The notes under the pieces were generated by a model. It made no database searches. It was not told the origin of the DNA and was given only the letters and a program-made list of their open reading frames with translations. A stretch of 64,000 bases of DNA from Burkholderiales bacterium (GTDB lineage: Bacteria > Pseudomonadota > Gammaproteobacteria > Burkholderiales > SG8-41): positions 8,479 through 72,478 of the forward strand of contig DASRJL010000147.1 in assembly GCA_035649495.1 (NCBI GenBank), written 5' to 3'. Made by a program: the position numbers and the translations under genes. Below, in pieces: positions 10,281 to 58,987 of this stretch; within the stretch, counting starts at the first letter, position 1; each line of letters starts with the position of its first letter.

Positions 10281-11267
10281 GTGGCGCAACGTTCGGTCAG
10301 GCCGATCATCGCGCGCGCCATCGTCGCGGCCGTCACCGGCATGTGCAGCACGCCCGTCGTTGCCGCGGCGCAGGATTACCCCACCAGGCCGGTGCGCGTG
10401 CTGGTGGCCTTCGCGGCCGGAGGTTTCGCCGATTCCACTGCGCGCCTGATCGGGCAGCGGCTTGCCGAGCAACTGGGGCAGCCTTTCGTGATCGACAACC
10501 GCAGCGGGGCAGGCGGCAACATCGCGGCCAAGACTACGGCCGAAGCTGCTCCCGACGGCTACACGCTGCTCGTGCATACCGCTGCGAGCGGCATCAATGC
10601 GACACTCGCCGTGAACCCCGGGTTCGACCTGCTGAAGGATCTCACGCCCGTGGCGAACACGGTATCGGCGGCGGGTCTCTGGATAGTGCTGCCTGCGCAT
10701 CCCGCCGCCAACCTTCAGGATCTCATCCGCATGTCGAAGGGCAAGCGGCTGAATTACGCCACAGCCGGAGTCGGCACGTCTTCGCATATCGCCGGGGACT
10801 ACCTGTTGCGGGTGCTGGCCGGGCTCGACGCGGTTCACATCGCATTCAAAGGCGGAGCCCCGGCGCTGGCCGCGCTGCTCGGCAACCAGGTGGAGCTCCT
10901 TTCAGCGTCGGGGTCTGCCGCGATTCCGTTGATCAAGCAGGGAAGGCTCAAGGCGCTAGGCGTGTCAAGCCTGAAGCGCACGGCGACGTTGCCGGACGTG
11001 CCGACGGTGTCCGAGGCCGGGTTCCCGGGATTCGAGGAGCGCTCGTGGGTGGGATACTTCGCGCCGGCCAGAACGTCCGCCGCCGTCGTCGCCCTGCTCA
11101 ACCGGGAGATCAACCAGGCACTCGCGCACTCCGACGTAAAATCCAGATTCATCGCGCAAGGGATGGAATTGCACCCGGGCTCAGCAGCGGATTTTGCCCG
11201 CTACGTTCGCGCGGAAGTAGCGCTGTGGGCGAAAATCATCAAGACGACGGGGGTGAAAGCGGAATGA
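10281..11267 (+). CDS. Bug/TctC-family periplasmic solute-binding protein
   Basis: GTG start. YPTRPVRVLVAFAAGGFAD, VIDNRSGAGG and PDGYTLLV. Confidence 0.9.
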   Translation: MAQRSVRPIIARAIVAAVTGMCSTPVVAAAQDYPTRPVRVLVAFAAGGFADSTARLIGQRLAEQLGQPFVIDNRSGAGGNIAAKTTAEAAPDGYTLLVHTAASGINATLAVNPGFDLLKDLTPVANTVSAAGLWIVLPAHPAANLQDLIRMSKGKRLNYATAGVGTSSHIAGDYLLRVLAGLDAVHIAFKGGAPALAALLGNQVELLSASGSAAIPLIKQGRLKALGVSSLKRTATLPDVPTVSEAGFPGFEERSWVGYFAPARTSAAVVALLNREINQALAHSDVKSRFIAQGMELHPGSAADFARYVRAEVALWAKIIKTTGVKAE

Positions 11268-11282
11268 AGGTATTTAGACGTC

Positions 11283-11589
11283 CTCTCGAAAACACCATAT
11301 TCCTGTGGACGTAGAGGGTTGACTACACCAATGGTATGCCGACGCTTGCGGGAACTACACGGGTCGTATGATTCATCACAGGTCCTGATTCAACGCATCA
11401 AGTGTGGTGAATCCCGGATTCCAGGCCCTACGCGTTCTCGGGCGCTTGCTGGCGATCGCTCGTACCGTCACCATCCGAGGACCTGAAATTGATGGCACAG
11501 ATTTCGTGCGACACCGAAGATGGAAAGTCGTCCCAGACTCGCGGATGTCCCAGGCAGTCATTTATTAGATAGCTTCCAGAACTTAATCC
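11283..11589 (+). repeat. conserved non-coding element, copy A (paralogous to 36920-37240)
   Basis: Aligns co-linearly with 36920-37240 through long identical blocks: CAATGGTATGCCGACGCTTGCGGGAAC, GTCCTGATTCAACGCATCAAGTG and GACACCGAAGATGGAAAGTCGTCCC. No reading frame is conserved between the copies. Confidence 0.9.
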
Positions 11590-11635: not shown

Positions 11636-12622
11636 ATGGCGAAACTAGTTGGCGTGTTCCAGGCGGCGCATACCCCGTTCTGCTATCGCAGGCCGGAAGA
11701 CTGGAACCAGGCGCGCAGCGGACGCGCGCTGCGGGCGGACGTGCCGCTCGACGACCTGGAGTCGAATCGCCGCAAGCACGCGCGCGTCCAGGACGGCTTC
11801 GCGGTGCTGCGGCGGAAGCTGGCGGAAGCGGGACCCGATGTGATCGTGGTCTTCGGCGACGACCAGCTGGAGTGCTTCGATTTCAGCAACTATCCTGCTT
11901 TTTCCATCTACGTGGGCGAGGAGTTCGAAGGCACGCTCGCGAGCGAGGACACGCCCATCGGCGGGCTCCCGTCCCAACCGGCGAAGAAGGCGCGGCTCAA
12001 GGGGCACCGGGAACTGGGCGTCGCGCTGCTGACCGGTCTCATGAAGCGGGGAATAGACCCGGCGTTCTGCATGGACATGCCCAAGCCGGAAGAAGGCATC
12101 GGCCACGCCGTCATGCGGCCGGCGCAATCGCTGACGGATCTCAAGACGCCGATCGTGCCGGTCCTGATCAATTGCTACTACGCGCCCCAGCCCACCGCCG
12201 CGCGCTGCTACCAGGTCGGCAGGGCGGTGCGCGAAATCATCGAGGAGCTCCCGGGGAGCCTGCGGATCGCCGTCGTCGGCTCCGGCGGCTTGTGGCATAC
12301 GCCGCGGAAGAAGGGCGCCTGGTTGAACGAGGCCTTCGACGAGGCGCTGCTCGCGCACATGGCGCGGGGCGACATCAAGGCGATGGCCGCCTGCTTCGAT
12401 GAGTACCAGGTTCCGGCGGGCGATGCCAGCCAGGAGATCGGGACTCGCGGAAAGGAAGTCACGGGCATGCCGGGGTTCGGCGGCCCCCAGGGCGGCACGC
12501 GCGAGACGTGCAACTGGATTGCGGCCGCCGGCGTCGTCGAGGGAACCACCGCGACCATCGTGGACCGCGTGCCGATCTACGCTTCACCCATCGACGCGGC
12601 GTTCGCGTACTTCAACCTCTGA
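11636..12622 (+). CDS. class III extradiol ring-cleavage dioxygenase (LigB family)
   Basis: 328 aa. The N-terminus MAKLVGVFQAAHTPF, followed by VIVVFGDDQLECFD...PAFSIYVG, GHAVMRP and VVGSGGLWH, is typical of the LigB / protocatechuate 4,5-dioxygenase beta-subunit fold. Confidence 0.8.
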   Translation: MAKLVGVFQAAHTPFCYRRPEDWNQARSGRALRADVPLDDLESNRRKHARVQDGFAVLRRKLAEAGPDVIVVFGDDQLECFDFSNYPAFSIYVGEEFEGTLASEDTPIGGLPSQPAKKARLKGHRELGVALLTGLMKRGIDPAFCMDMPKPEEGIGHAVMRPAQSLTDLKTPIVPVLINCYYAPQPTAARCYQVGRAVREIIEELPGSLRIAVVGSGGLWHTPRKKGAWLNEAFDEALLAHMARGDIKAMAACFDEYQVPAGDASQEIGTRGKEVTGMPGFGGPQGGTRETCNWIAAAGVVEGTTATIVDRVPIYASPIDAAFAYFNL

Positions 12623-12633
12623 CGAGCCCCGCG

Positions 12634-12688
12634 CTACGAGCCACGAGCTACGGACGACGAAGCAGCAGTCACGATTCACGGGTCACGC
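12634..12688. repeat. tandem heptamer array (8 units)
   Basis: CTACGAG CCACGAG CTACGGA CGACGAA GCAGCA GTCACGA TTCACGG GTCACGC, directly after the LigB stop codon. Confidence 0.85.
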
Positions 12689-26227: not shown

Positions 26228-26367
26228 CCGTCAGGCGTCCGCAACACCCGTCAGGGGTCATGGGTCAGCGGTCAGGCGTGCCAGAATCTGTTAAGGTCAT
26301 GCGCGCCTGACGCTTAACGCTTAACGCCTGACGGGTTCTCGCGCGCATGACCCATGACCCCTGACAG
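26228..26367. repeat. CGTCAGG-word nested inverted repeat between convergent genes
   Basis: Left arm is CCGTCAGGCG..CCGTCAGGGGTCATGGGTCAGCGGTCAGGCG. Right arm is GCGCCTGACG..CGCCTGACGG..CATGACCCATGACCCCTGACAGG. Confidence 0.85.
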
Positions 26368-32506: not shown

Positions 32507-32510
32507 GTGC

Positions 32511-32540
32511 GTGACCCGTGACCGGTGACCAGTGACCGGT
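32511..32540 (+). repeat. GTGAC-N2 tandem heptamer array (30-mer identical to 34647-34676)
   Basis: GTGACCC GTGACCG GTGACCA GTGACCG GT, 4 nt after the aconitase stop codon. Confidence 0.95.
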
Positions 32541-32598: not shown

Positions 32599-33390
32599 CT
32601 ACAGCACTGAACGCACCAATCCCCCGTCCACGAGCATGGTCGTCCCGGTGATGTAGCTCGCTCGTCCCGAGGCGAGGAAAGCCACCAGGTACGCCAGCTC
32701 CTTGGGCTCGCCGACGCGTCCCACCGCAGTCTCGGCCGCCCGCTCCGCGAGCGCCTCTTCCACCGAGATGCCTTTTTCCTTGGCCCGCGACGTGACGTTC
32801 GAGAGCATGCGCTCCGAAAGGATCGAGCCGGGACACACGTTGTTGACCAGAATGCCGTCGCGTCCCACCTCGTCGGCGAGGCTTTTCGCCCATGCCACCA
32901 CCCCCATGCGCGTCGCGCCCGAGAGCGCGAGGTTGGGGATCGGCTGGTAGACGGTGCTCGCGAGGATGTTGATGATGCGCGCGCCGCCCGCCTTCTTGAG
33001 ATGCGGCAGCGCTTCCCGCGCCATGCGCGCGAAGAAGAGCAGCGAGCGCTGCACGGCGGTGGCCCACTGCTCCTCGCTCGCGTTCTGCGCATAGGCAAGG
33101 GGAGGGCCGCCGGAATTGCTGACGAGGACGTCGAGCCGCCCGAATTTGCCGGCCGCGGCCGCGATGAATTCCCGGACCGTTTCGTTCCGGTCGAGGTCGC
33201 CGGCAAATGCCAGCACCTCGACGCCCGTCGCGTCGCGGATCTCCTTCGCTGCCTTCTCGATGTCCGGCTTCGAGCGGCTGCACATCGCCACGTTCGCGCC
33301 TTCGCCGGCCAGCACTTCCGCGCACGCGCGCCCCAGCCCCTTGCTCGCGCCGCCGACGATGGCGGTCTTGCCTTTCAGCATCAAGTCCAT
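32599..33390 (-). CDS. SDR-family oxidoreductase (3-oxoacyl-ACP reductase-like)
   Basis: ATG 33390 follows AAGGA. KTAIVGGASKGLGRACAEVLAGEGANVAM (TGxxxGxG). Confidence 0.85.
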   Translation of the reverse strand: MDLMLKGKTAIVGGASKGLGRACAEVLAGEGANVAMCSRSKPDIEKAAKEIRDATGVEVLAFAGDLDRNETVREFIAAAAGKFGRLDVLVSNSGGPPLAYAQNASEEQWATAVQRSLLFFARMAREALPHLKKAGGARIINILASTVYQPIPNLALSGATRMGVVAWAKSLADEVGRDGILVNNVCPGSILSERMLSNVTSRAKEKGISVEEALAERAAETAVGRVGEPKELAYLVAFLASGRASYITGTTMLVDGGLVRSVL

Positions 33391-33407
33391 GCTTTTCCTT
33401 TCAACAA

Positions 33408-33550
33408 GTGATGTACGCTGGCGCGGTGATGTACGGCTTCGCCAGTGATGTACGCTATCGCAGTGATGTACGGCTTCGCCAGGTGATGTGCCGCCAGCGA
33501 TTCTCATCACCACTTTTCATCACCACTATCTCATCACCATCATTCATCAC
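33408..33550. repeat. GTGATGTACG x5 (18-20 nt period) followed by CATCAC x4 (13-14 nt period)
   Basis: GTGATG at 33408, 33426, 33445, 33463 and 33483. CATCAC at 33505, 33518, 33532 and 33545. The array fills the divergent intergenic region between 33390 (-) and 33571 (+). Confidence 0.9.
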
Positions 33551-33570: not shown

Positions 33571-34650
33571 ATGTTCGACGAACACAAACCCCTCGAAATC
33601 GCGGACCAGGGATGCTTTTTTGCCGGTGGGCGCTACGCGGAGACCGACGACGGCCGCGTCATCCTGGGGCAGATGTACGTGCAGTATCAGGTGCCCCGGA
33701 CGCGCCGGCACCCGCATCCGGTGGTCATGATTCACGGCGGCGGCCAGACCGGCGTCAATTTCCTCTCCACCCCGGACGGGCGCCGCGGCTGGGCGGACTA
33801 CTTCGTGGCAAACGGGTTCACGGTCTACGTCGTCGATCAGCCGGCGCGCGGGCGCTCGGGATTTTTCACCAGGGGCTATGGCGATGCCGCTCGCCGGAAT
33901 GCGGACGCTATTGCGGAACGGTTCACGGCTCCCGAAATCGGCAAGCGCTGGCCGCAGGCCGGGCTGCACACGCAATGGCCGGGAACCGGAGTCGCGGGCG
34001 ATCCCGCGTTCGATCAGTTCTACGCGTCCCAGGTGGAGAGTATGTCCGACATCGCCGCCCTCGAGCGCATGATGCGCGAAGCGGGCGCTGCGCTCCTCGA
34101 CCGCATCGGCCCCGCGATCCTGCTGACGCATTCGCAGAGCGGCCCCTTCGGCTGGACGATCGCCGACGCACGGCCGCAGGCGGTACGGGCGATACTCGCG
34201 ATCGAGCCCAACGGCGCACCCGTGCGCGAGGTCGAGTTCACGGGCCCGCCCGGCTGGTTCGAGGACGGCCTGGTCACCCGACCGTGGGGCATCACCCGCG
34301 GCCCGCTCGCTTTCACTCCAGCGGCCGCGGCGCCGTCCGATCTCAAGTTCGAGAGACAGGCCGAGCCGGACGGTCCGGGCCTCGTCTGCTGCTGGCTGCA
34401 GGCGGGCCCGGCGCGGCAACTCGCGAATCTCCGCGGAATCCCCGTGTTGATCCTGACTTCCGAGGCCTCCTATCACGCGGCGTACGACCACTGCACCTCG
34501 CGGTTCCTGCGGCAGGCGGGGGTCGAGCACGACTTCGTCCGTCTTGCCGACGTCGGGATCCGCGGCAACGGCCACATGATGATGCTCGAGAAGAACAATC
34601 TCGAGATCGCGGCGTTTCTTCAGAAGTGGATCGAGGCGAAACTCCCGTGA
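33571..34650 (+). CDS. alpha/beta-fold hydrolase
   Basis: PVVMIHGGGQTG and LLTHSQSGPFG (nucleophile elbow variant). 359 aa. Confidence 0.75.
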   Translation: MFDEHKPLEIADQGCFFAGGRYAETDDGRVILGQMYVQYQVPRTRRHPHPVVMIHGGGQTGVNFLSTPDGRRGWADYFVANGFTVYVVDQPARGRSGFFTRGYGDAARRNADAIAERFTAPEIGKRWPQAGLHTQWPGTGVAGDPAFDQFYASQVESMSDIAALERMMREAGAALLDRIGPAILLTHSQSGPFGWTIADARPQAVRAILAIEPNGAPVREVEFTGPPGWFEDGLVTRPWGITRGPLAFTPAAAAPSDLKFERQAEPDGPGLVCCWLQAGPARQLANLRGIPVLILTSEASYHAAYDHCTSRFLRQAGVEHDFVRLADVGIRGNGHMMMLEKNNLEIAAFLQKWIEAKLP

Positions 34651-34676
34651 CCCGTGACCGGTGACCAGTGACCGGT
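34647..34676 (+). repeat. GTGAC-N2 tandem heptamer array (30-mer identical to 32511-32540)
   Basis: GTGACCCGTGACCGGTGACCAGTGACCGGT. Its first TGA (34648-34650) is the stop codon of the hydrolase gene. Confidence 0.95.
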
Positions 34677-35914: not shown

Positions 35915-36910
35915 ATGAGCTTGAAGCTGCGCAGATTGGGAGTCGTCGGAGGTTTCCTGTGCTGTGCCGGTGCGCTGGCGGCGCCGTTGCTCGCGGCTGC
36001 CGCCGATCCGGCGTACCCCGTGCGGCCGGTGCGCATCATCGCGCCGTTTCCGCCGGGCTCGGGGGTGGACATCATCGCGCGCGTAATAGGGCAGGCGTTG
36101 ACGGATGCCTGGAAGCAGACGTTCGTCGTGGAGAACCGGCCGGGCGCAGGCGGCACGATAGGCTCGGATCTCGCCGCCAAGGCGCCACCCGACGGCTACA
36201 CGCTCCTGCTCGGCAACGTGAGCACGCTCGCGATCGGACCCCATCTCTATCGCAACCTGCCATACGACCCGCTGCGCGATTTCGCGCCGATCACGCACAT
36301 CACGTCGATGGGGAGTGTGCTGCTCGTCCATCCGTCCGTGCCGGCGCGCTCGATGAAGGAGCTCGTCGCCCTCGCCCGCGCGAAGCCGCGCTCGCTCACC
36401 TATGCCTCCGCGGGCAGCGGGACCACTACGCACCTCGGCATGGAGCTCCTCAAGTCCATGGCGAAGATCGACATGGTGCACGTTCCGTACAAGGGCAGCG
36501 CTGCGGCGCTGACCGACCTCATTGCAGGCCATCTCCAGGTAATGATGTCGACCATCGCCACGTCGCAGGGGCACGTCAAGGCGGGCAAGCTGCGGGCACT
36601 GGGCGTAACGACCCTCAAGCGAATGGATCTACTTCCCGACGTGCCCTCCATCAACGAAGCGCTGTTCCCGGGATTCGAAGTGATCGTGTGGCAGTCCATG
36701 GTGGCGCCGGCGCGCACGCCGGAGGCGATCGTCATGCGGCTCAACGCGGAGATCGTGCGAATTCTGCGCACGCCCGCGATGAAGGAGCACCTGACGAACC
36801 AGGGACTGGAGGCGGTGGGCAACTCGCCGAAGGAGTTTGGCGAGTTCATCAAATCGGAAAACGCGAAATGGGCGAAAGTGGTAAGAATATCCGGAGCAAC
36901 GGTTGACTAG
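35915..36910 (+). CDS. Bug/TctC-family periplasmic solute-binding protein
   Basis: Internal ATG 35915 of ORF 35687..36910. Signal peptide, then YPVRPVRIIAPFPPGSGVD, VVENRPGAGG and PDGYTLLL. Confidence 0.9.
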   Translation: MSLKLRRLGVVGGFLCCAGALAAPLLAAAADPAYPVRPVRIIAPFPPGSGVDIIARVIGQALTDAWKQTFVVENRPGAGGTIGSDLAAKAPPDGYTLLLGNVSTLAIGPHLYRNLPYDPLRDFAPITHITSMGSVLLVHPSVPARSMKELVALARAKPRSLTYASAGSGTTTHLGMELLKSMAKIDMVHVPYKGSAAALTDLIAGHLQVMMSTIATSQGHVKAGKLRALGVTTLKRMDLLPDVPSINEALFPGFEVIVWQSMVAPARTPEAIVMRLNAEIVRILRTPAMKEHLTNQGLEAVGNSPKEFGEFIKSENAKWAKVVRISGATVD

Positions 36911-36919
36911 CTAGAAGCC

Positions 36920-37240
36920 ATCTCGAAAAGACCCGTTTCCTATGCAAGGTGGAGGGTTGACTACATCAATGGTATGCCGACGCTTGCGGGAACCGCCAGG
37001 GTTGTGTGATTCATCACACGTCCTGATTCAACGCATCAAGTGGTGTGAATTACGGATTCCAAGTCCCACGCGTTCTCCGGCAAGTGCTGGCGACGCTTGT
37101 ATCGTCGCCATCCGACACCCCGAACTTGATGGCACTGATTTCGTGGGACACCGAAGATGGAAAGTCGTCCCGGGACTCGCCGGGACTCGCGGATGTCTTA
37201 GACGGTCGTTCATGAGATAGCTTCTGGAAGCTCAATTCCC
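36920..37240 (+). repeat. conserved non-coding element, copy B (paralogous to 11283-11589)
   Basis: Co-linear with copy A. Contains a 12-nt tandem duplication (GGGACTCGCC GGGACTCGCG) that copy A lacks. Confidence 0.9.
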
Positions 37241-37255
37241 GGATGGGTGATTGAA

Positions 37256-37732
37256 ATGAGCCAATCGGAATCGAAGTGGAAGTTTCACGGCGTGCGGGTC
37301 GTGCATGCGAACGAGCTCGACCCGAACACGGCGCAGACGCCGGGGATGAATCGCGCGGCGGCGATTACTCATGCGCGCGCAGGGGCGGAGAAGCTGTGGG
37401 CCGGCACCGTGGTGATCCATCCCAAGGCAAAGACCGGCGCGCACCACCACGGCCCGGTGGAAAGCGTGATCTACGTCGTGAGCGGCCGCGCGCGGATGCG
37501 CTGGGGCGACAAGCTCGAATTCGTGGCCGAGGCCGGACCCGGCGATTTCATCTACGTGCCCCCGTACGTGCCGCACCAGGAGATCAACGCGAACGACGAC
37601 GAGCCGCTCTCGTGCGTGCTGGTGCGAAGCGGCCAGGAGCCGGTGGTGGTCAACCTCGACATCCCGGTGGTGGAGAGGCCCGAGGAGGTGCACTGGGTGG
37701 ACAACATCCATCCGGCGCCCAAACCACAGTGA
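37256..37732 (+). CDS. cupin-domain protein
   Basis: KTGAHHHGPVESVIYVVSGRARMRWG...GPGDFIYVPPYVPHQEIN. Start is ATG 37256 (alternative GTG 37247). Confidence 0.8.
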   Translation: MSQSESKWKFHGVRVVHANELDPNTAQTPGMNRAAAITHARAGAEKLWAGTVVIHPKAKTGAHHHGPVESVIYVVSGRARMRWGDKLEFVAEAGPGDFIYVPPYVPHQEINANDDEPLSCVLVRSGQEPVVVNLDIPVVERPEEVHWVDNIHPAPKPQ

Positions 37733-37748
37733 CCGGGCGCGTCGAGGG

Positions 37749-37780
37749 GCGGAGCAGGGGCCCCGGTTTCCGGGGATGCG
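37749..37780. repeat. 32-nt repeat with CCCCGG-TTT-CCGGGG hairpin (identical to 48493-48524)
   Basis: GCGGAGCAGGGGCCCCGGTTTCCGGGGATGCG, 17 nt after the cupin stop codon. Confidence 0.9.
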
Positions 37781-37855
37781 ACCCCCGGTGACGCGTGGGG
37801 CGGCCGACCATGATGTCTCCGATTTTCGTGTTGCCTTGGCAGAGGCCGCCGTCCA

Positions 37856-38314
37856 GTGACTGGTATAGAGCAAACTGGTGAGCGGTGTGTGACGGGACCG
37901 GTCACGGGTCACGAGTCACGAGTCACGCCCTCCGGATTTTCTCTGTTCCCTCGACACCGTGTCCTGCGCATTGCGGCGGTGATCTGGTTGGTGCTGGCTG
38001 CGGCACTGCTCGTCGTGATGCTGCTGCGGCCCGAGATGCAGGCAGGCGAGCGACGGGCCCTTTCCGTACTGATGCCGCTCTACTTCATGAGTTTGCCGCT
38101 GGGTCATGCCGGGCTGCTGGCGGTCGGCAGGCTGAAGGTGGAGCTTTATTGGAACAACGAGTTCGTGCCCGCGGTTTTTACCGAGGGCATGGTGCTGTGG
38201 ATCCTGCTGATGCTGCTGGGTTACGTGCAATGGTTTCTTCTGCTGCCAATGATCTCCGGGAGGATCCGCCGGCTGGGACACGCGTACTCCGCCTGGAGGG
38301 TCTCGGCAAAGTAG
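37856..38314 (+). CDS. hypothetical membrane protein
   Basis: Three hydrophobic segments (IAAVIWLVLAAALLVVMLL, LSVLMPLYFMSLPLGHAGLLAV, MVLWILLMLLGYVQWFLLLPMI). The start is uncertain because the 5' end overlaps a heptamer array. Confidence 0.45.
   Translation: MTGIEQTGERCVTGPVTGHESRVTPSGFSLFPRHRVLRIAAVIWLVLAAALLVVMLLRPEMQAGERRALSVLMPLYFMSLPLGHAGLLAVGRLKVELYWNNEFVPAVFTEGMVLWILLMLLGYVQWFLLLPMISGRIRRLGHAYSAWRVSAK
37899..37926 (-). repeat. GTGAC-N2 tandem heptamer array (reverse orientation)
   Basis: CGGTCAC GGGTCAC GAGTCAC GAGTCAC. Confidence 0.9.
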
Positions 38315-45276: not shown

Positions 45277-45424
45277 GATCTGGACCTCCTTACCATTGAG
45301 TTGAGCAAGTATAAGCCTGCGCCGGCCACCGGCAAAACGGAATTCCCTATGTCAGGCGGCCCGCTGGAGACGTTACCTGGCAGTCCACATTACGTGCAAA
45401 AGGACCCGGTCAGTTGGGCGGTCC

Positions 45425-45452
45425 CGGTCACCGGTCACTGGTCACTGGTCAC
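45425..45452 (-). repeat. GTGAC-N2 tandem heptamer array
   Basis: The minus strand reads TAA-A-GTGACCA GTGACCA GTGACCG GTGACCG, immediately after the stop of the TctC gene. Confidence 0.9.
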
Positions 45453-45453
45453 T

Positions 45454-48480: not shown

Positions 48481-48492
48481 GACGCCGGAGCC

Positions 48493-48524
48493 GCGGAGCA
48501 GGGGCCCCGGTTTCCGGGGATGCG
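48493..48524. repeat. 32-nt repeat with CCCCGG-TTT-CCGGGG hairpin (identical to 37749-37780)
   Basis: GCGGAGCAGGGGCCCCGGTTTCCGGGGATGCG, at the point where the thiolase-fragment homology breaks. Confidence 0.9.
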
Positions 48525-48685
48525 CCCCGGCCTCGGTCTCCGGAACGGTGGTGCGGGACGGGGCGCAAAGCCGCTGCGCCGCGTACACTTCCACTTGCCG
48601 GGGCCGCTCGCTGCTCCCGCACCCTGCTCGCGCACACCGAGTCGCAGCGGCACCGCGTAGGCGGCCGACCGCACGGGCCCAATGG

Positions 48686-50241: not shown

Positions 50242-50324
50242 GTGACACGTGACACGTGACTCGTGACCGGCAAGCGAGATCGAGGGGTGCAGTTACGAGT
50301 CACGGGTCACCGGTCACGGGTCAC
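50242..50324. repeat. inverted pair of heptamer arrays (GTGAC-N2 x4 ... GTCAC-N2 x5)
   Basis: GTGACAC GTGACAC GTGACTC GTGACCG, a 22-nt spacer, then GTTACGA GTCACGG GTCACCG GTCACGG GTCAC. Confidence 0.9.
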
Positions 50325-55577: not shown

Positions 55578-55605
55578 GTGACCAGTGACCGGTGACCAGT
55601 GACCA
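55578..55605 (+). repeat. GTGAC-N2 tandem heptamer array
   Basis: GTGACCA GTGACCG GTGACCA GTGACCA, starting 4 nt upstream of the start codon of the minus-strand oxidase gene. Confidence 0.9.
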
Positions 55606-55681
55606 GCATAATACGGGCTGGACCTGTTATTGCGGCGCGCTAGAATAGCCGCCTCGCGGCATACCTGAAACGGAGGAGCAC

Positions 55682-58906: not shown

Positions 58907-58987
58907 GTGACACGTGACAGGTGACACGTGTCTCGAAAATGCCGTATTCCTCCAATCGCAGGTGACGAGTCACGGGTCACGAGTCAC
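58907..58987. repeat. inverted pair of heptamer arrays (GTGAC-N2 x3 ... GTCAC-N2 x3)
   Basis: GTGACAC GTGACAG GTGACAC GTG, a 31-nt spacer, then GTGACGA GTCACGG GTCACGA GTCAC. The architecture matches 50242-50324. Confidence 0.9.

Follow-up and report, generated by a model that had tools for sequence, protein, structure and literature searches.

A conserved 300-nt spacer beside ring-cleavage and cupin genes is very probably a decayed MITE moved by an IS427-group insertion sequence

Introduction

Why should a non-coding sequence of about 300 nt occur twice in one bacterial genome, each time between a TctC gene and an oxygenase-type gene, and be better conserved than the genes on its two sides? 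This question is raised by two intergenic spacers, here called copies A and B, in a 64-kb stretch of DNA analysed as a whole and referred to below as the window. An initial annotation of the window, made by reading the sequence, left four options for them: a long structured 5' leader, a shared cis-regulatory region co-controlling two oxygenase-type genes, an sRNA gene, or a non-autonomous mobile element.

Small intergenic elements bounded by terminal inverted repeats can resemble conserved regulatory spacers, as the MITE described here does. The Correia element of Neisseria and the RUP element of Streptococcus pneumoniae, for instance, insert at TA and are often co-transcribed with their neighbours. 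They measure 100-155 bp, number from tens to hundreds of copies and have documented effects through promoters, IHF sites or RNase III, of which no counterpart was found here. In this study we have compared the two spacers with further copies, with the corresponding junctions of related genomes and with an insertion sequence (IS) that shares their ends, and we have examined the coding, RNA and regulatory readings of the same DNA.

Results

Two similar spacers between dissimilar genes

Copies A and B align on the same strand with 80.6% identity over 314 columns (BLASTN, E ~1e-80), and the 64-kb window contains no third copy detectable by BLASTN. The initial annotation had estimated by eye an end-to-end identity of about three quarters to four fifths, which agrees with this measurement, and the identical blocks that it listed are found in both copies. 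The two spacers are thus real, but their limits, set here by the terminal repeats, differ from those first given: copy A ends 59 nt before the start codon of the LigB-type dioxygenase gene and copy B 31 nt before that of the cupin gene, instead of 16-47 nt before the genes. Pfam assignments confirm the flanking genes as annotated, with TctC upstream on both occasions, LigB after A and cupin after B (Table 1). The gene order is Rieske/LigXa, TctC, TctC, copy A, LigB, HbpS-like and YCII at site A, and hydrolase, an unknown ORF, TctC, copy B and cupin at site B.

The spacers have a G+C content of ~53%, versus ~67% in the adjoining genes. Copy A is 100% identical in six conspecific contigs (L001-L006), and copy B is 100% identical in the conspecific contig L010. 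A tandem duplication of CCGGGACTCG is private to copy B, the other three copies being gapped there in the alignment; it had been described with a 12-nt unit, and TRF confirms the duplication with a unit of 10 nt. The GGCGACG...CGTCGCC hairpin pointed out in B exists and is specific to that copy.

Identity between the TctC proteins beside copies A and B reaches only 38.7%, and at the DNA level their genes share only short patches of 65-75% identity. The likeness of A and B is therefore confined to the spacers, in line with the early remark that the flanking DNA has no comparable similarity, and no duplicated segment is involved; a segmental duplication of TctC plus spacer was ruled out on this protein identity of 39%.

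Table 1. Coordinates of the MITE copies, their termini and neighbouring genes, and of the partner IS. Positions without a contig name refer to the window.
Feature	Position	Strand	Evidence or remark
MITE copy A, 300 bp	11277..11576	+	aligns with copies B, C and D
MITE copy B, 311 bp	36914..37224	+	aligns with copy A
MITE copy C	L008:5329-5617	minus	20-mer scan, alignment
MITE copy D	L007:1953-2247		20-mer scan, alignment
Left TA of copy A (target-site duplication)	11275..11276	.	read from sequence
Left terminal repeat of copy A, GACGTCCTCTCGAAAACACC, decayed	11277..11296	+	10/20 versus own right end
Right terminal repeat of copy A, ...TTATTAGATAGCTTC	11557..11576	+	alignment, IS-end match
Left TA of copy B	36912..36913	.	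read from sequence
Left terminal repeat of copy B, GAAGCCATCTCGAAAAGACC	36914..36933	+	IS left-end match
Right terminal repeat of copy B, reverse complement GAAGCTATCTCATGAACGAC	37205..37224	+	
Tandem duplication in copy B, 10-nt unit CCGGGACTCG, 2.1 copies	37170..37190	+	TRF
TctC gene, left of copy A	10281-11267		Pfam
LigB-type dioxygenase gene, right of copy A	11636-12622		Pfam
TctC gene, left of copy B	ends 36910		Pfam
Cupin gene, right of copy B	37256-37732		Pfam
IS insertion TA, inside CTAG of TctC stop (GAC TAG)	36908..36909	.	conspecific L010
Complete IS, 850 bp	L015:587-1436		identical to L016 copy
Complete IS, 850 bp	L016:80-929		identical to L015 copy

Further copies in unrelated contexts

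Further copies were sought by an exact scan of a metagenome collection, using as query a 20-mer from the longest shared block. Two contigs matched, with one new copy each (C and D), and these are 80-84% identical to A and B, copy A being 84% identical to C and 80% identical to D. The four copies are 289-311 bp long. A count of four, coming from a single exact 20-mer scan, is a lower bound, and it is low for a MITE. The 20-mer scan of a genome collection gave one chance match, in a Desulfocapsa MAG (L009) and restricted to those 20 nt, while blastn against the PLSDB plasmids and a scan of viral contigs returned no match to the element.

Copy C occupies the entire gap between convergent CMD-like and alpha/beta-hydrolase genes. 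Copy D follows a group-1 glycosyltransferase gene and precedes an ORF without Pfam match, and no pair of neighbouring genes recurs among the four copies. The placement between TctC and oxygenase-type genes emphasised in the initial annotation holds for A and B and fails for C and D; counting copies and recording their flanking genes had been proposed there as a check, and the unrelated contexts of the two extra copies mean that the TctC/oxygenase link is an accident of this window. In the four-copy alignment 61 of the 84 variable columns are private to one copy, a star-like pattern, and each copy lies ~8-10% from the consensus.

Orthologous junctions in relatives

Orthologues of the LigB gene were gathered by a protein search with LigB. 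At the TctC-LigB junction of L011 (TctC 89% and LigB 90% identical) the spacer is 185 nt long and unrelated to the element, and in L012, a 776-kb contig (TctC 78% and LigB 85% identical), it is 48 nt long and lacks the element. In L013 a different gene lies 47 nt upstream of LigB. Since the element is missing from the relatives' orthologous junctions, the copy at site A is specific to this lineage. The polarity would be that of an insertion and not of a loss, judging from two relatives whose spacers are otherwise unalignable. No precise same-species empty site of the MITE was found. The LigB homologues P0005 and P0006 (L018-L020), where LigB lies just 15 nt downstream of a TctC gene, were considered as empty sites and rejected, the upstream TctC being 31% identical and non-orthologous.

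Termini and target sites

The four-copy alignment has sharp borders with terminal inverted repeats, GAAGCCATCTC...GAGATAGCTTC. These termini are ~20 bp long with the consensus GAAsCyATCTC...: the left end of the copies reads G-A-A-G-C-C-A-T-C-T-C and comes directly after TA, usually within CTAG, and the right end reads G-A-G-A-T-A-G-s-T-T-C and precedes either TA or a dinucleotide derived from it by one transition. Over the first 11 nt the inverted repeats agree at 10/11 positions in B and 9/11 in C, with 13/20 overall in both (for B, right end GAAGCTATCTCATGAACGAC against its own left end). Those of A and D are badly decayed, with 10/20 and 8/20 respectively; the left end of copy A, GACGTCCTCTCGAAAACACC, can be aligned with those of B and C, which are intact.

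Every copy retains the left TA, and copy C alone has an intact TA on both sides. The partner on the right reads CA in A (11577-11578), TG in B (37225-37226) and CA in D, each one transition away from TA. Moreover, all four copies have their TA or CTAG site at or beside the stop codon of the left gene, and all four share the orientation of that gene. In A the left TA stands 7 nt after TGA, the arrangement is TAG-C-TA in B and TAA-C-TA in C, and in D the upstream TAG stop codon is itself formed by the TA together with the element's first G. At 289-311 bp, and without transposase or coding capacity, the element falls within the ~50-1000 bp expected of a MITE.

An IS5-family partner shares the termini

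Contig L010, retrieved via the cupin protein, follows the window from 36907 onward with 99.9% identity. Before this position it lacks the TctC gene and reads ...GTGTTTTTGAGATAGCTTC-TA-G-C-TA-GAAGCCATCTC..., so that an IS end with MITE-like terminal sequence (GAAGCTATCTCAAAAACAC...) stands head to head with copy B. Read on its own strand, this end is followed by ATG-ARREELTDEQWEIVEPLIPE... (ATG-ARREELTDEQW...), the start of a transposase gene, and the peptide it encodes corresponds to the beginning of Pfam DUF4096, 'putative transposase of IS4/5 family' (E 6.5e-5). L010 breaks off within the IS (L010:1-141), which is thus an insertion polymorphism relative to the window at 36908-36909.

A search with this peptide returned three fragmentary proteins, and contigs L015 and L016 hold the complete IS. 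The two copies occupy different sites, are each flanked by TA and have inverted repeats matching at 16/20 positions. ORF A (DUF4096) and ORF B (DDE_Tnp_1) overlap at GCGAAAAAGGGGG, where frame 0 gives way to frame -1; the two ORFs being in different frames, a -1 frameshift is needed for the IS transposase. The frameshift-corrected transposase scores 249.9 bits against NCBIfam NF033580 (IS5 family; cut-off 110) and covers positions 2-258 of 258. The nearest plasmid-borne transposases are IS5-family proteins of Leptospira weilii and Deinococcus, at most 63% identical, and a PLSDB blastn with the IS end or the IS DNA gave no match.

The left end of copy B, GAAGCCATCTCGAAAAGACC, matches the IS left end, GAAGCTATCTCAAAAACACT, at 16/20 positions (18/21 by BLAST including the preceding A), and the first 12 nt of its right end, GAAGCTATCTCATGAACGAC, are identical to the IS left end. 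Compared at their exact termini, MITE and IS agree at 19/21 positions on the left and 27/34 on the right, and the MITE left end agrees with the reverse complement of the IS right end at 22/25. The MITE interior, ~260 bp, has no similarity to the IS. The initial annotation had recognised neither a named RNA nor an IS end in the element, and had made its novelty hinge on this; the former holds, as no Rfam family matches, but an IS terminus has now been found, in an IS5-family IS of the same bacterial population.

Other origins were considered and rejected. A deletion derivative of the IS retaining internal sequence is ruled out, as only the termini match; in copy D 12 nt agree with the sequence at the transposase start codon, no more than chance would give. 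An origin of the IS200/IS605 type (PATE), prompted by the constant CTAG of the left flank, is rejected in view of the true inverted repeats, the TA duplications and the IS5-family partner. An integron attC site was ruled out by eye, the R''/R' core sites being absent.

A related IS lies at L017:321-1104; its transposase shows 69-73% identity, and its left end, GAAGCAGTCTCATAAATGCC, resembles the MITE right end. At L021:620-820 (P0123) the left end of a related IS survives as a truncated remnant, which belongs to a different organism and is uninformative for the MITE. Judging from L017 and L021, the IS lineage is widespread.

Coding, RNA and regulatory readings

Homology to known RNAs was searched with Rfam, over the whole window at gathering scores and over the four copies at permissive E-values of 1-10, and yielded noise only, the noise match being raiA-hairpin at 13.8 bits versus a cut-off of 43.7. 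This agrees with the earlier statement that the element was not recognised as any named riboswitch or sRNA. Folding was compared with that of shuffled sequences: copy B is more stable on both strands (z -3.6 and -2.8), and copy A has no excess stability (z +0.25 and +0.77). In RNAalifold the covariation term is positive, that is, a penalty, on either strand (+1.8 and +1.7 kcal/mol), with 1/74 and 2/82 compensatory pairs, so the covariation proposed as a check for a structured RNA receives no support. Differences between A and B that had seemed to preserve pairing do not bear this out: both-side changes occur in 0/38 pairs, counting the pairs proposed earlier, the terminal stem and the GTGTGAT/ATCACAC palindrome. 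The covariation score was reached or exceeded in 500 of 500 shuffles, with the low power that four sequences afford. Neither a sigma-70-like promoter nor an intrinsic terminator was found in the element.

The distribution of variable sites is close to uniform (dispersion index 0.71, p 0.38), and the longest invariant run, 22 nt, is marginally above chance (p 0.026). The block ACACCGAAGATGGAAAGTCGTC is invariant in the four copies, and a block of ~45 nt, TTGATGGCAC...GGAAAGTCGTC, is almost invariant among them.

It is quite improbable that the ~260-bp interior carries a travelling function as an sRNA, a 3'-UTR processing or stability element, or a protein-binding site (the GTGTGATTCATCACAC palindrome). 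Such a function would fit the co-orientation of all four copies with the gene ending at their left border, the long invariant blocks, the better-than-shuffled folding of copy B and the near-perfect 7+2+7 palindrome retained in B and C. However, that palindrome is degraded in A and D, copy A lacks excess folding stability, compensatory changes are absent and the covariation score does not rise above that of shuffled controls; variable sites are unclustered overall, and there is neither an Rfam match nor a promoter or terminator consensus. The shared orientation itself, for the three copies between same-direction genes, has a chance probability of 0.125-0.25. Adoption of the interior by the host as cargo, in the form of a transposon-borne sRNA or a 3'-UTR module acting on the transcript of the left gene, is decidedly improbable; the co-orientation of the four copies and the near-invariant ~45-nt block would follow from it.

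The leading idea of the initial annotation was that both oxygenase-type genes are co-regulated through the element, as a conserved structured 5' leader, riboswitch or shared operator region. This is very unlikely indeed. In the window A and B do lie downstream of TctC and upstream of a ring-cleavage or cupin gene, on its strand, but copy C, between convergent genes, is upstream of nothing and so cannot be a 5' leader or promoter region. Copy D, as seen above, has a glycosyltransferase gene and an ORF without Pfam match as neighbours, the orthologous LigB genes of relatives have upstream spacers of 15-185 nt without the element, and the ends of the element are IS termini; Rfam matches and covariation are lacking here too. 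As for a decayed small protein gene (pseudogene) or a real small ORF, we find it scarcely credible. Individual copies have ORFs of 55-92 aa, the candidates being one of 92 aa in copy B and, on the minus strand of A and of B, one of 61 aa, and a frame M(A/M)(L/Q)IS(C/W)(D/N)TEDGKSS is open in 4/4 copies across the invariant block. Yet no frame is open throughout the four copies, as indels shift the frames, a concatenated six-frame consensus query against 5.8 billion proteins found no match at E <= 0.01, and gene callers called nothing in the element in L001-L005 or L010. The short shared frame is conserved only because its nucleotides are invariant, and its C-terminal part is out of frame in copy A. 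The element is thus non-coding, as was first proposed.

Discussion

The element described here has sharp borders and terminal inverted repeats, shares its termini with an IS, is dispersed over unrelated contexts and is absent from orthologous sites in relatives. Taken together, these observations make it highly probable that A and B are decayed copies of a non-coding MITE family moved by an IS of the IS427 group. Of the four options offered at the outset, the mobile element stands, on the IS ends, the contexts of C and D and the absence in relatives, and the leader, the cis-regulatory region and the sRNA do not. The MITE family is new and low-copy, and the kind of element is already known. We infer that it was mobilised in trans by the IS, that TA or CTAG is preferred as target, and that the element has no host function.

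In the mechanism that we propose, the IS transposase would be made by a -1 frameshift joining the DUF4096 ORF to the DDE ORF, and would bind the terminal repeats of the MITE in trans. The MITE would then be inserted at TA, preferably in CTAG or YTAR, with duplication of the TA. In a genome of ~65% G+C, tolerated TA/CTAG sites would cluster at stop codons and in short spacers, and TA/CTAG targeting in such a high-GC genome, combined with selection against insertions within genes, would explain why every copy begins at or beside a stop codon. Owing to the element's first G, insertion in the TA of a TAG stop codon would rebuild TAG; copy D and the IS insertion at the TctC stop next to copy B both show this arrangement. 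Copies A and B would be two old insertions, independent of each other, and the spacers would be more alike than the TctC genes on account of age, the TctC paralogues having diverged in the distant past and the copies being far more recent.

Bacterial type II MITEs whose only likeness to IS5-family elements lies in the terminal inverted repeats are already known (PMC4596501). Examples are BrickBuilt, MITE293 and MITE700 of Porphyromonas gingivalis, with ISPg1, ISPg3, ISPg4 and ISPg9, and the Neisseria ATR element with ISNme1 (PMC4596501). Like these, the present element is small, intergenic and without transposase, its interior is unrelated to the IS, its repeats match a co-resident IS5-family IS, and target-site duplications are often degenerate. 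It differs from them in its unrelated sequence, in its 4 copies so far versus a typical 10-20, and in the TA duplication. Its host also sets it apart, being an uncultured high-GC soil/rhizosphere bacterium; the closest taxon-labelled LigB homologue comes from a Betaproteobacteria MAG.

Elements of the IS427 group, such as IS1248, ISPaes1 and ISPpa6 of Paracoccus, measure 832-865 bp and have 13-21 bp inverted repeats and two overlapping ORFs with a frameshift motif; their direct repeats are 2 bp long, and 4 bp in one element (PMC3281130). The partner IS resembles them in its 850 bp, its ~20-bp repeats (16/20), its 2-bp direct repeat and its DUF4096-then-DDE order of ORFs. The MITE itself, unlike IS427-group elements, is a non-autonomous derivative.

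Our work removes a false lead: a conserved 300-nt spacer near aromatic-degradation genes is read here as mobile DNA and not as a new riboswitch or sRNA. The definition of the MITE family and of its 850-bp partner IS should aid annotation and explain contig breaks in these metagenomes. It also suggests how TA/CTAG-targeting elements would accumulate exactly at stop codons in high-GC genomes, with TAG rebuilt. Furthermore, polymorphism of the IS between 99.9% identical contigs suggests that it was recently active, and this polymorphism could serve as a strain marker.

Other repeats

Several other repeats were observed. In L012 (20428-20707) another non-coding element, of 280 bp, begins at the TAG stop of a TctC gene. 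Its left end, CTAGAAGCGATCTCCAAAACTCC, resembles that of the MITE (23/27), its right end reads ...AGGTTC, and TA is present on both sides; its interior is unrelated and contains inverted ACACAGATRA arrays. It may represent a second MITE family using a related transposase.

Short intergenic tandem arrays of 3-5 units of 7 nt, GTGACNN or NNGTCAC, are found throughout the genome. In the window they occur at 1076-1106, 12622-12652, 26250-26365, 32510-32540, 34644-34676, 37901-37927, 45419-45453, 50242-50324, 55578-55606 and 58907-58987, and in related genomes at L011:4996-5030, L012:3657 and L013:89. They often directly follow a stop codon, or form inverted pairs ~50 nt apart (50242/50295 and 58907/58961), and they may be a lineage-specific REP-like or terminator-like class of repeats. 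Both complete IS copies lie in or next to 7-nt arrays containing CTAG (L015:480-586 and L016:932-955), with the units CTAGTCC, CTAGTCT and CTGGTCT; CTAG-containing 7-nt arrays may be preferred targets of the IS.

A complex tandem array at 33407-33550 of the window has 18-nt and 37-nt units containing AGTGATGTACG, with a 13-nt TCATCACCACTTT array behind it; its location is the intergenic region between the divergent genes for an SDR (32599-33513, minus) and a hydrolase (33571-34650). Finally, a 41-nt repeat at 37744-37784 and 48488-48528, 93% identical and containing the palindrome GGGGCCCCGGTTTCCGGGGA, has the appearance of a common terminator-type hairpin placed after two genes.
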